In this document: piece by piece, positions 1,661 to 12,185 of the stretch | Layout of the letters: every line of letters starts with the position of its first letter | How positions within the stretch are numbered: the first letter of the stretch is position 1 | Assembly: GCA_045588145.1 (NCBI GenBank) | Contig: JAZNDS010000056.1 | Span: 27,448-91,447 of the forward strand | Direction of reading: 5' to 3' | From: Eubacteriales bacterium | GTDB taxonomy: Bacteria > Bacillota > Clostridia > Oscillospirales > CAG-272 | Length of the DNA: 64,000 nucleotides | The notes under the pieces: model-generated | The model's input: only the letters and a program-made list of their open reading frames with translations | Databases searched by the model: none | Told to the model about the DNA's origin: nothing | Made by a program: the position numbers and the translations under genes

Positions 1661-1670
1661 ATAAGAAAAA

Positions 1671-1698
1671 GGCGAGTTGCTTACAATTCGCCTTTTTT
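1671..1698 (+). terminator. Intrinsic terminator of the upstream CDS
   Basis: GGCGAGTTG-ctta-CAATTCGCC (one mismatch) followed by TTTTTT. Confidence 0.75.
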
Positions 1699-1789
1699 AT
1701 TCGTGTTCCCGCGTGAAAAAAGAAAAAACGGCTATAAAAAAGATATTTTACCTTTTTAATCGATGGATTTGAACCCGCGCGTACTCAAT

Positions 1790-1954
1790 CACGGCGGAGC
1801 CGTGCATGGAATCCGTAACTTGTTGCGGTATGGAATTGATTGCAAAGCAATCGTATGGAATCAAGCCGCAGAGAAATGCACCTTTGGTGATGCCATACGC
1901 CTACGGCGATACCATACACGCTAACGCGTGATTCCATACCAAGCCTGCGGCTTG
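1790..1954. repeat. Array of six GTATGGNATC 10-mers (3 forward, 3 inverted) alternating with seven short unrelated hairpins; candidate structured ncRNA or protein-binding array
   Basis: Motifs at 1805, 1828, 1853 (forward) and 1889, 1908, 1930 (inverted). The hairpins between them are listed in the findings. No ORF or RBS. Confidence 0.6.
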
Positions 1955-1990
1955 AATAAAAAACGACAAATTTCTGTCGAAATTTGTCGT
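1955..1990 (-). terminator. Terminator of the tRNA-Gly/tRNA-Arg transcription unit (bidirectional shape)
   Basis: Perfect 12-bp stem ACGACAAATTTC-tgtc-GAAATTTGTCGT, followed on the minus strand by TTTTTATT. Confidence 0.8.
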
Positions 1991-2306: not shown

Positions 2307-3170
2307 ATGAACAAGAAACCTCTTTTCGGGCCGGGAGGAAACAGCGTTTCCTTTGCGGCGGCAGGGCATAAATCAACGGTAGAGGCCCCCGCCTGGCTGG
2401 CAGAGATCGGCCTCGATGCTTATGAATACGAGGCAGGGAACGGATTGACCGCCGGGGACGCGACGCTTGCCAAAATCGGGGAGGAAGCAAAACGAAACGG
2501 CATCGCGATGTCCTTTCATACGCCGTATTTCATTTCGCTTTCGGGGATCGAGCTTGAGAAAAGGCTGAAAAGCATTGAATATATTCGCACCTCCTTGCAC
2601 GCGGCCGAATTGCTGGGTGCCTCCACGATCGTTGTCCACACGGGGAGTGCTGCCAAGATCACCAGGGAAGAGGCGATGCGCTTTTGTGCCGACACCTTGT
2701 ATAAGGCCCTTGAAGCACTTCCCGATAACGGGGTAAAGATCGGCCTTGAAACCATGGGAAAGGTCAATCAGCTGGGCACCTTGGATGAGGTCATCACGCT
2801 TTGCGGTCTTTCGTCGCGCCTTGCCCCGGTCGTTGATTTCGGGCATCTTAACGCGCGTGAATGCGGAAACGGCGGCTTTAAGACGAAGGACGATTATATG
2901 CGTGTTTTCGACGCGATCGCCTGCGGCCTTGGCGATAGCTATGCCTTGGATCTACATTGTCATTTTTCCAAGATCGAATATACGGGGGCGGGTGAGAAGA
3001 AGCACCTTACCTTTGAGGACGCGGTTTTTGGTCCCGCTTATGAGCCTTTAATGGAAGCGATCGCTTCGCTTCGGGTCAATCCCACGATCATTTGCGAATC
3101 GGCGGGAACGATGTCAGACGATGCGCTTGCCATGAAGGCCTATTATCAGAAGATTACGGAGGGATTATGA
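2307..3170 (+). CDS. Xylose-isomerase-like TIM-barrel protein (AP endonuclease family 2 / endonuclease IV-like)
   Basis: 287 aa. Alternating hydrophobic strand/helix pattern, with HTPY, VVHTGS and DFGH motifs typical of the family. RBS AAGGAAG precedes the ATG. Confidence 0.5.
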   Translation: MNKKPLFGPGGNSVSFAAAGHKSTVEAPAWLAEIGLDAYEYEAGNGLTAGDATLAKIGEEAKRNGIAMSFHTPYFISLSGIELEKRLKSIEYIRTSLHAAELLGASTIVVHTGSAAKITREEAMRFCADTLYKALEALPDNGVKIGLETMGKVNQLGTLDEVITLCGLSSRLAPVVDFGHLNARECGNGGFKTKDDYMRVFDAIACGLGDSYALDLHCHFSKIEYTGAGEKKHLTFEDAVFGPAYEPLMEAIASLRVNPTIICESAGTMSDDALAMKAYYQKITEGL

Positions 3171-11474: not shown

Positions 11475-12093
11475 GGATGCGCATCGATGCCGGAAATGCG
11501 AACTTTTTGTCTATGCCGGGGCATAGACAGAGCTCTCACAGTCAACTTCTCCGCAAAAAAGGACACCCACAGGGGTGGCTAAAGAAGAGATATTCACCGC
11601 GGTGAATATTCCACGGCTTTCCACCGCCTCGCAAGCGGGCGGATGCTCTGCGCCGGGAATGCGAACTCTTTGTCTATGCCGGGGCATAGACAGAGCTCTC
11701 ACGGTCAACTTCTCCGCAAAAAAGGACACCCACAGAGGTGGCCTATAATATAAAAGAAGAGATATTCACCGCCGGTGAATATTCCACGGCTTGCCACCGC
11801 CTCGCAAGCGGGCGGATGCTCTGCGCCGGGAATGCGAACTCTTTGTCTATGCCAGGGCATAGACAAAGCTCTCACAGTCAACTTCTCCGCAAAAAAGGAC
11901 ACCCATAGGGGTGTCCTATAATATAAAAGAAGAGATATTCACCGCGGTGAAGATTCCACGGCTTGCCACCGCCTCGCAAGCGGGCGGATGCTCTGCGCCG
12001 GGAATGCGAACTCTTTGTCTATGCCAGGGCATAGACAGAGCTCTCACAGTCAACTTCTCCGCAAAAAAGGACACCCACAGGGGTGTCCTTTTT
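11475..12093 (-). repeat. About 3.6 tandem copies of a 172-175 bp tRNA-Ser-derived structured unit, each ending in a terminator hairpin
   Basis: The anchor AGAAGAGAT recurs at 11583, 11755, 11928 and, within the tRNA, at 12103. Copies are near-identical by eye. Each unit has four hairpins. Confidence 0.9.
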
Positions 12094-12185
12094 TGGCGGA
12101 GAAGAAGAGATTCGAACTCTTGAACCGCTTTTAACGGTTACACGATTTCCAGTCGTGCGCCCTCGACCAACTAGGCGACTTCTCC
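12094..12185 (-). tRNA. tRNA-Ser (anticodon GGA)
   Basis: 92-nt class II tRNA: acceptor GGAGAAG/CTTCTCC, anticodon loop CT-GGA-AA, long variable arm AACCGTTAAAAGCGGTT, T-arm AAGAG-TTCGAAT-CTCTT, encoded CCA. Confidence 0.93.

Follow-up and report, generated by a model that had tools for sequence, protein, structure and literature searches.

What kind of element is the compact, dyad-symmetric array of short repeats and hairpins that lies beside a tRNA operon at positions 1790-1954 of the DNA analyzed here, a 64,000-nucleotide stretch of an Eubacteriales genome (assembly GCA_045588145.1, contig JAZNDS010000056.1, positions 27,448 to 91,447; hereafter, the window)? A first-pass annotation made from the letters alone had suggested a structured RNA or single-stranded DNA element and offered two explanations, namely, a small RNA (sRNA) displaying GGA-containing sites in the manner of the CsrB/RsmZ protein sponges and a set of iterons for a DNA-binding protein. 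We compared the window with related loci, labeled with L-numbers and including metagenome contigs. Relatives with the same site were chosen via homologs of the flanking TIM-barrel gene (2307-3170), and the wider dyad family was recovered by one metagenome scan with the array center as the pattern, which returned 28 stretches. The arrays are a previously undescribed family of small noncoding repeats in which varied hairpins are combined with a constant 10-base linker. The interpretation that we favor, at a probability of roughly 0.45, is that window positions 1730-1963 represent one copy of a dispersed modular noncoding repeat, akin to the REP (repetitive extragenic palindromic) sequences, the BIMEs (bacterial interspersed mosaic elements), and the BOX elements, which would act in read-through RNA.

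Anatomy and distribution of the arrays

The array consists of six copies of the 10-mer GTATGGNATC, three forward and three inverted, alternating with seven small hairpins. The forward copies on the plus strand are located at 1804-1813 (GCATGGAATC) and 1828-1837 (GTATGGAATT), each with one mismatch, and at 1853-1862, which is exact, as are the three inverted copies on the minus strand (1889-1898, 1908-1917, and 1930-1939). Six of the hairpins are perfect (1790-1804, 1838-1852, 1879-1889, 1898-1908, 1917-1930, and 1940-1954), and the seventh, 1814-1827, includes one T·G pair. All these components had been recognized in the first-pass annotation, with several of the hairpins drawn 1 bp too short, as the flanking C and G pair. 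Both the clustering of the 10-mer and the hairpin content are far above chance. With at most one mismatch allowed, the 10-mer has 21 matches in the 64 kb, as opposed to 8.7 ± 3.3 in shuffled sequences, and 6 of the 21 fall within 136 bp; no second cluster was found in the window. Perfect short hairpins account for 62 paired bases in the 165-nt region, whereas 2000 shuffles averaged 16 and never exceeded 56, and the region ranks second among 1161 window tiles of 165 nt.

The two blocks of the array face each other across a center. In the left half (1790-1862), for which the plus strand is the sense strand, hairpins 1790-1804 (loop GGA), 1814-1827, and 1838-1852 (loop AAA) alternate with linkers, with the GNA loops and the T·G wobble both on the plus strand. 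The right half (1879-1954) is sense on the minus strand, that is, the strand of the tRNA genes, and in it hairpins 1879-1889, 1898-1908, 1917-1930, and 1940-1954 alternate with linkers; on the minus strand, the loop of 1898-1908 is GTA and that of the terminal hairpin, 1940-1954, is GCA. The center, AAGCCGCAGAGAAATGCAC (1863-1881), is the segment most conserved across the dyad family, and its first 9-11 nt pair with 1945-1955. This long-range complementarity, originally noticed between 1863-1871 and 1946-1954, is genuine and extends to 11 nt, at 100%, between 1861-1871 and 1945-1955. The two ends of the array are imperfect inverted copies of one another (left, ATC-CAAGGC..GCCTTG; right, CAAGCC..GGCTTG-GAT), with about 12 of 15 positions matching. 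The region had been described as free of open reading frames (ORFs); ORFs of 38-53 amino acids do cross it, although they cannot be conserved because the modules are shuffled between copies.

At its own site, the array varies between relatives. L001, in which the flanking protein is 90% identical, retains the order of the upstream gene, its terminator, the tRNA terminator, tRNA-Arg, and tRNA-Gly, with a spacer of 83 nt and no array, and L230 (88% identical) shows the same synteny with a 131-nt spacer, likewise without an array; the intergenic spacer of the window measures 334 nt. Given its absence in the two closest relatives, the array was therefore either gained in the lineage of the window or repeatedly lost in others, and the empty sites of L001 and L230 are too diverged to show clean borders. 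A more distant relative, L005, carries a clearly homologous dyad array at the same place, which has in common with the window the leader CTCAATCAC, the hairpin cgcaacttgttgcg, the center AAGCCGCAGGAAAATGCAC, and the terminal hairpin CAAGCCTGCGGCTTG and differs in the linker (GTATATCATC / GATGATATAC). Simpler, direct arrays are present, again at this place, in about seven loci (L016, L047, L056, L029, L058, L050, and L246), with GNA- or GNRA-loop hairpins spaced by a constant 7-mer (GCATCAC, GATTTCA(T), ATATCAC, or ATATCGC). Of the nine arrays found in the loci selected by synteny, eight are no more than a few hundred nucleotides from the 3' end of a tRNA operon, where about one in ten would be expected from the share of intergenic regions of that kind in these loci. 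The architecture is maintained among loci whose flanking proteins are just 65-75% identical.

Eight of the 28 stretches returned by the center scan are true arrays, the remainder being chance matches in coding DNA. In total, nine related dyad arrays were recovered, one of them a one-plus-one mini version, and the stems are maintained through compensatory changes. The hosts are uncultured gut and rumen Clostridia, represented by Eubacteriales/Oscillospiraceae-like metagenome-assembled genomes. The closest copy, L224, differs from window positions 1730-1963 by five substitutions and one indel (~97% identity) and adjoins tRNA-Trp instead of tRNA-Arg, with a homologous neighboring terminator. Elsewhere, the array adjoins tRNA-Ser (L223), ends in an apparent tRNA 3' end (L226), retains just the first bases of tRNA-Arg (L205), or comes after a protein-coding gene (L219), a terminator hairpin (L220), or, in the case of the mini array, tRNA-His (L055); in L207, the left half is almost gone. 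Arrays of the GTATATCATC type occur in at least nine different gene contexts, and the genes that adjoin the arrays are mutually unrelated housekeeping genes. Because L223 and L224 belong to one assembly and have similar coverage (0.91 and 0.88, respectively), the GTATATCATC-type and window-type linkers probably coexist in one genome.

The linker conforms to the consensus G-Y-A-T-N-N-N-A-T-C, most often as GTATATCATC, and is near-constant inside each array; L219 and L055 mix linkers of the GTATGGAAT and GTATATCAT types. The hairpins, which had been taken to be unrelated to one another, mostly fall into a few module families common to several arrays, many of them short GC-rich hairpins of the frame CA-N4-GNA-N4-TG. 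Modules are swapped, gained, and lost between arrays; for instance, aagggcggcNNNgccgccctt, accgcacgttgtgcggc, acgactgcgtcgt, and cgcaacttgttgcg reappear across arrays in different orders. The number of units ranges from 0 to 3 in the left half and from 3 to 4 in the right half, with the 3+3 layout preserved in six of the nine dyad arrays despite module replacement. In the dyad subfamily, the two blocks face the conserved center AAGCCGCAGRRAAATGCAC, and an inverted repeat of 10-11 bp, made up of CAAGCCGCAG(G) and (C)CTGCGGCTTG, encloses the right block. The right half and the center together make up the constant core, and the right end always lies against the A-tract of a bidirectional terminator. 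In two independent contigs, L205 and L220, a ~45-nt insertion, GGGAACCCCCAAAGCTCGGCAAGCTCGCTTCGAGGAACCCCTA, splits the terminal hairpin CAAGCC...GGCTTG.

No described family accounts for these sequences. Rfam yielded no match for the array, either at the gathering threshold across the window or at E ≤ 10 for positions 1600-2200, and returned only tRNAs for 17 related loci at the gathering threshold; blastn with a word size of 11 matched no plasmid or phage sequence; and full-text literature searches on arrays of hairpins, on clostridial extragenic palindromes, and on the linkers turned up no description of the arrays.

Pairing, loops, and the orientation of each half

The variation among modules suggests that selection acts on the hairpins as single-stranded structures, with a conserved linker joining them. 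We aligned ten 15-nt modules of the frame ATC-A-NNNN-GNA-NNNN-T-GTAT, in which all 60 of the 60 cells are standard pairs and three of the six pairs are altered on both sides, that is, by compensatory change; the covariation score of this set was reached by none of 500 shuffles, and sliding the partner strand abolishes the pairing. Together with the near-constant linkers, this pattern bears out the original suggestion of a structured RNA or single-stranded DNA element. The loops are strand-specific as well: as read from the array sequences, GNA, GNRA, and CUUG loops lie on the plus strand in left halves and on the minus strand in right halves. Four G·U wobbles occur on sense strands and none on opposite strands, no C·A pair is found on the sense strand, and the two tandem G·A pairs of L050 are also on the sense strand. 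Strand-specific loops and wobbles are meaningless in duplex DNA and therefore point to RNA or single-stranded DNA; they also give each half an orientation.

When the window right half is folded alone, on the minus strand, its three hairpins are enclosed by a closing helix of 11-12 bp (z = −4.6), and four homologous right halves fold alike, with three or four hairpins (z = −5.0 to −7.1), although such low z-scores are expected of any string of palindromes. The closing helix is invariant across the set and hence shows no covariation. Pairing of the forward with the inverted 10-mers, also raised in the first-pass annotation, is thermodynamically possible and is used in single-sequence folding. 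However, a long hairpin formed in this way is contradicted by the family, in which the register is broken in L219 and L055, with nested-register complementarity of 6+1 and 6 out of 10, respectively, and the GCAT linker variant occurs in both halves at non-facing positions and is not compensated in register. The dyad symmetry thus seems to reflect orientation rather than pairing. Separately, CCTGCGGCTTGGAT and CAAGCCGCAGGGAAA (1940-1957 and 1861-1876, and the same parts of GTATATCATC-type arrays) resemble the two strands of 16S rRNA helix 45 plus GGAT, with CCTGCGGCTTGGAT corresponding to the 3' strand, probably by coincidence; mimicry of the 16S rRNA 3' end was considered and dropped, since equally good scores were obtained with ~2.5% of random hairpins built to the same plan, which is not significant after many comparisons.

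Transcription and possible roles

Promoters were scored as matches out of 12 to sigma-70-like boxes, with at least 10/12 counted as consensus quality. The only dyad array with such a promoter directed into it is that of L205, in which the linker doubles as the −10 box. By contrast, seven of the eight GTATATCATC-type loci have a strong sigma-70-like promoter (10-12/12) just beyond the left end, on the tRNA strand, directed into an unrelated gene; in the window and in L224, a weaker version on the minus strand (TTCAAA-17-TAAAAT, 1773-1745), directed away from the array, runs into a terminator. In L219, L223, L226, and L055, the −35 box of this promoter, TTGATT, is made up of the last bases of the terminal hairpin (…CCTTG) and a partial linker (AT), and is placed exactly 17 nt from the TATAAT box of the neighboring, otherwise unrelated gene. 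L055 and L058 agree in their −10 box and in the gene downstream, but each has an array and a −35 box of its own. The direct arrays of L016, L047, L056, L029, L246, and L050 have an intrinsic terminator after the sense block, and the sense blocks of L056, L029, and L050 must be transcribed because they lie between a stop codon and the terminator; in L246, a promoter-like sequence, TTGCCC-18-CATAAT, is located directly 5' of the sense block. In the window, each half is sense relative to the transcription unit that runs into it.

Arrays occupy terminator-proximal intergenic DNA, most often just after the intrinsic terminator of a tRNA operon, and are gained, lost, and duplicated to new sites, with modules exchanged at the linkers. 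As a REP/BIME/BOX-like repeat, the array might work as follows. The hairpins would function in single-stranded nucleic acid, most probably RNA produced by read-through of a flanking unit, where they could pause or end read-through and block 3' exonucleases in the manner of REP/BIME clusters, and the neighboring genes would be insulated from the very strongly transcribed tRNA operon. At some loci, the end of the element may additionally provide the −35 box of the next gene. Because the linker is constant and the hairpins vary, a factor that reads the linker is to be expected, which could be either an RNA-binding protein or the enzyme responsible for moving or recombining the modules. REP clusters have been reported to serve as combined terminators and stabilizers in 3' untranslated regions (bioRxiv 10.64898/2026.03.23.713779), and clusters of hairpins have been linked to sites of termination (PMC8355165). 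By analogy, the arrays may exert a REP-like action on read-through transcripts from the units on either side.

Several observations weigh against this interpretation. Read-through into the window array may be slight because both incoming units have good terminators before it. The agreement between the sense strand of each half and the incoming transcription does not extend to L016, to L246, or to the left halves of the GTATATCATC-type loci, where the left neighbor is an outward-facing promoter. The conserved linker is superfluous for a simple hairpin barrier and so is left unexplained, and the combination of varying hairpins with constant linkers is opposite to that in REPs. No RAYT or other transposase was found linked to the arrays, the window proteins not having been scanned for PF01797. 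The evidence of target-site duplication is weak: direct repeats at the flanks reach significance in just three loci, namely, the window and L224 (ATAAAAAA, 8 bp, about 2% of shuffles) and L226 (AAAAAAATC, 9 bp, about 1% of shuffles), those of six other loci being A-rich, just 5-6 bp long, and at chance level. Furthermore, the copy shared by the window and L224 includes the homologous terminator, and homologous recombination therefore explains it as well as transposition does. Finally, the dispersal was seen in comparisons across loci and contigs.

In a general form of the sponge idea not tied to CsrA, the array could instead be a dedicated structured RNA, either free-standing or derived from a 3' end, whose hairpins show the repeated single-stranded linker, (G)UAU-NNN-AUC(A), to a partner; it would serve an RNA-binding protein, an RNase, or a complementary RNA as a sponge or scaffold with many sites. 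The compensatory changes, the RNA-type stable loops, and the sense-strand G·U pairs fit such an RNA, as do linkers that are more tightly constrained than the stems, the closed multiloop into which the right half alone folds in five arrays, the recurrent 3+3 layout, the sense blocks of direct arrays that precede terminators, and the promoter-like site upstream of that in L246. Nevertheless, we consider a dedicated RNA unlikely: the dyad arrays lack an incoming promoter of consensus quality and the strong promoters next to them face away, the orientation relative to neighbors varies, and the invariant closing helix and expectedly low z-scores add little. The linker differs between arrays and, in L219 and L055, within them, so a single partner would have to be tolerant. 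The CsrB/RsmZ-type sponge of the first-pass annotation fails on specific grounds, because GGA occurs only in the GTATGGAATC linker and is missing from the commoner ones (GTATATCATC, GCATCAC, ATATCAC, and ATTTCAT), which excludes CsrA in particular; nor is there a promoter into the dyad arrays or an Rfam match. A more elaborate version, to which we assign a somewhat smaller likelihood, posits a new class of modular RNA from tRNA-operon 3' flanks, in which three or four hairpins closed by a helix would present repeated UAU-NNN-AU(C) as a decoy or scaffold for an RNA-binding protein or ribonuclease, with cassettes swapped at the linkers by a dedicated recombination system. Two further roles for the array sequences were considered and set aside: the linker bears no resemblance, convincing by eye, to a tRNA T-loop or a MazF-type cleavage site, and the genes that adjoin arrays are unrelated, which argues against a leader or operator of one gene family.

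Lower again in our estimation is the possibility that the 10-mers are binding sites in duplex DNA, such as repressor operators, arm sites of an integrative element, or iterons, and that the hairpins are incidental. Three forward and three inverted 10-mers beside a tRNA gene are reminiscent of how arm sites are arranged in the attachment (att) sites of tyrosine integrases, and some linkers contain ATCAC, a sequence also present in the heptads to which the omega repressor of inc18 plasmids binds. Moreover, the tRNA 3' flanks of this clade are rich in tRNA-derived fragments such as integrative elements leave, the window has a T-arm-like piece (1765-1781) on the far side of its array, and the arrays abut promoters, to the point that the element end forms the −35 box in four loci. 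However, the linkers are spaced 19-30 bp from start to start and are thus found on all faces of the helix; a duplex would have no use for strand-specific loops and wobbles or for compensatory changes in the stems; the center of the dyad is not tRNA-like; and the arrays have no integrase, rep gene, or regulator as a regular neighbor. The same lack of helical phasing, together with the many housekeeping sites and the absence of a plasmid or phage counterpart, argues against the iterons proposed initially. A viral origin was also rejected, as the more than 120 viral matches with two copies of GTATGGAAT are mostly coding repeats with a 33-nt period and without hairpin spacers; the occurrence of GTATGGAAT at this period in viral contigs L081-L200 is unrelated to the array, and the center scan of viral contigs gave one chance match, in coding DNA. 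That the array has no function at all, having arisen as a cluster by chance or as a neutral by-product of slippage near a terminator, is very improbable: it is missing in the closest relatives without visible consequence, but its motif clustering and hairpin content far exceed those of shuffles, the stems have undergone compensatory changes, and the architecture is conserved among substantially diverged loci.

Genomic surroundings and comparison with known systems

The array is situated between two convergent intrinsic terminators. On the left, the upstream plus-strand gene ends with a stop codon at 1658-1660 and is followed by its terminator (1665-1698, plus strand; a 15-pair stem and a T run), which forms the left border of the intergenic space and is kept in the array-free relatives L001 and L230. 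The left flank that travels with the array (1730-1789) is kept as a block in L224 beside a different tRNA. It contains the left copy of ATAAAAAA (1734-1741) and the tRNA T-arm-like stretch GGATTTGAACCCGCGCG (1765-1781), which lies outside the array and fits neither tRNA-Arg nor tRNA-Trp; this stretch also resembles the end of tRNA-derived elements in related loci and doubles as the −35 region of the minus-strand promoter-like site. The leader CTCAATCAC (1784-1792) follows, and CTCAATC(AC) also opens the arrays of L005, L221, and L056. On the right, the A-tract ATAAAAAA (1956-1963) leads into the bidirectional terminator hairpin of the tRNA operon (1963-1990), which is homologous in L224, L001, and L047. 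The operon itself, correctly identified at the outset, is encoded on the minus strand and comprises tRNA-Arg(ACG) (1995-2070) and tRNA-Gly(UCC) (2077-2150), with a promoter-like site at 2197-2169. Apart from tRNA genes, neighbors in the window include the TIM-barrel gene of the AP-endonuclease-2 family, an M24 peptidase, and EF-P.

Other tRNA-derived elements were observed in the window and in related loci. Downstream of tRNA-Ser(GGA) (12094-12185, minus strand), window positions 11480-12093 hold ~3.5 tandem copies of a ~180-bp unit, each consisting of a terminator hairpin and a tRNA-Ser-like pseudo-copy with a large internal insert, which on the minus strand runs from GCGGAGAAGTTGAC to GAATATCTCTTCTT; the pseudo-copies are called by neither ARAGORN nor Rfam. 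Elements derived from the 3' end of tRNA-Arg or tRNA-His, such as TGGCGCGCCTGACAGGAG...GTTCGAATCCTGCAAACGCGCCA, are present in L028, L029, L030, L039, L040, L043, and L007 (12300-12610), with remnants in L025 and L056. They lie immediately 3' of the parent tRNA, singly or as a tandem pair, each with its own terminator, have no Rfam match, and may be integrative-element debris or tRNA-like RNA. In L236-L240, L243-L245, and L247, many short-read contigs stop ~200 nt upstream of the flanking gene, at tRNA genes, and the arrays and adjacent tRNA-derived repeats may contribute to such assembly breaks. Both represent unannotated structured DNA.

Among known systems, CRISPR is the least similar, with repeats of 23-55 bp, unique nonpalindromic spacers, and cas genes, whereas the repeats here are 7-10 nt long and the would-be spacers are 9-20 nt palindromes drawn from a small common repertoire. 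Iterons are direct, phased repeats of ~17-22 bp next to a rep gene and an AT-rich region, unlike 10-mers in two opposed blocks. Attachment sites of tyrosine integrases share with the arrays direct and inverted repeats of ~10 bp next to a tRNA 3' end, with tRNA remnants around, but there is no core matching a tRNA 3' end between the two sets (the center being AAGCCGCAGRRAAATGCAC) and no integrase nearby, and the hairpins are left unexplained. The CsrB/RsmZ RNAs likewise display repeated short single-stranded motifs between or on stem-loops, but GGA is unconserved here, the dyad arrays have a terminator and no promoter of their own, and the host is not a proteobacterium.

Closer parallels are found among dispersed repeats. 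The BOX elements of Streptococcus pneumoniae, of the form boxA-(boxB)n-boxC, and repeats resembling miniature inverted-repeat transposable elements (MITEs) are similarly modular, with variable numbers of internal modules and partly inverted ends, and BOX elements are intergenic, dispersed, and highly structured when single-stranded; their sequences are unrelated to the arrays, however, and BOX modules are ~45-nt repeats of one sequence rather than different hairpins with a 10-nt linker. Terminal inverted repeats of the kind that characterize MITEs are present, imperfect at the array ends and perfect (10-11 bp) in the right block, and the window and L224 provide two ~97%-identical copies beside different tRNAs, with the homologous terminator included. 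The REP and BIME elements of Enterobacteria and Pseudomonas, mobilized by RAYT (Y1 HUH) transposases, resemble the arrays in several respects: both are noncoding and extragenic, at the 3' ends of transcription units or between convergent genes, as in the window, and all homologs of the array abut a terminator; both consist of small GC-rich palindromes in opposed orientations with short linkers; the presence of both varies between close relatives; and both are likely to affect read-through and 3' decay. The arrays differ in that they lack the 5' GTAG tetranucleotide, the linker beginning with GTAT, in their strong preference for tRNA-operon terminators, and in the hairpins, which vary within and between arrays where REPs have one or a few conserved palindrome sequences, each repeated many times in a genome; in effect, the BIME design is reversed, with a constant linker and variable hairpins. 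If the arrays are indeed repeats of this kind, they would make strains differ in read-through, transcript stability, and even promoter strength, because the element end forms the −35 box at some loci; they could be used as a typing marker, and the strictly conserved linker would point to an enzyme or binding protein worth seeking. Gut and rumen Clostridia would then possess their own counterpart of REPs and BIMEs, built on the opposite principle and concentrated at the terminators of tRNA operons.

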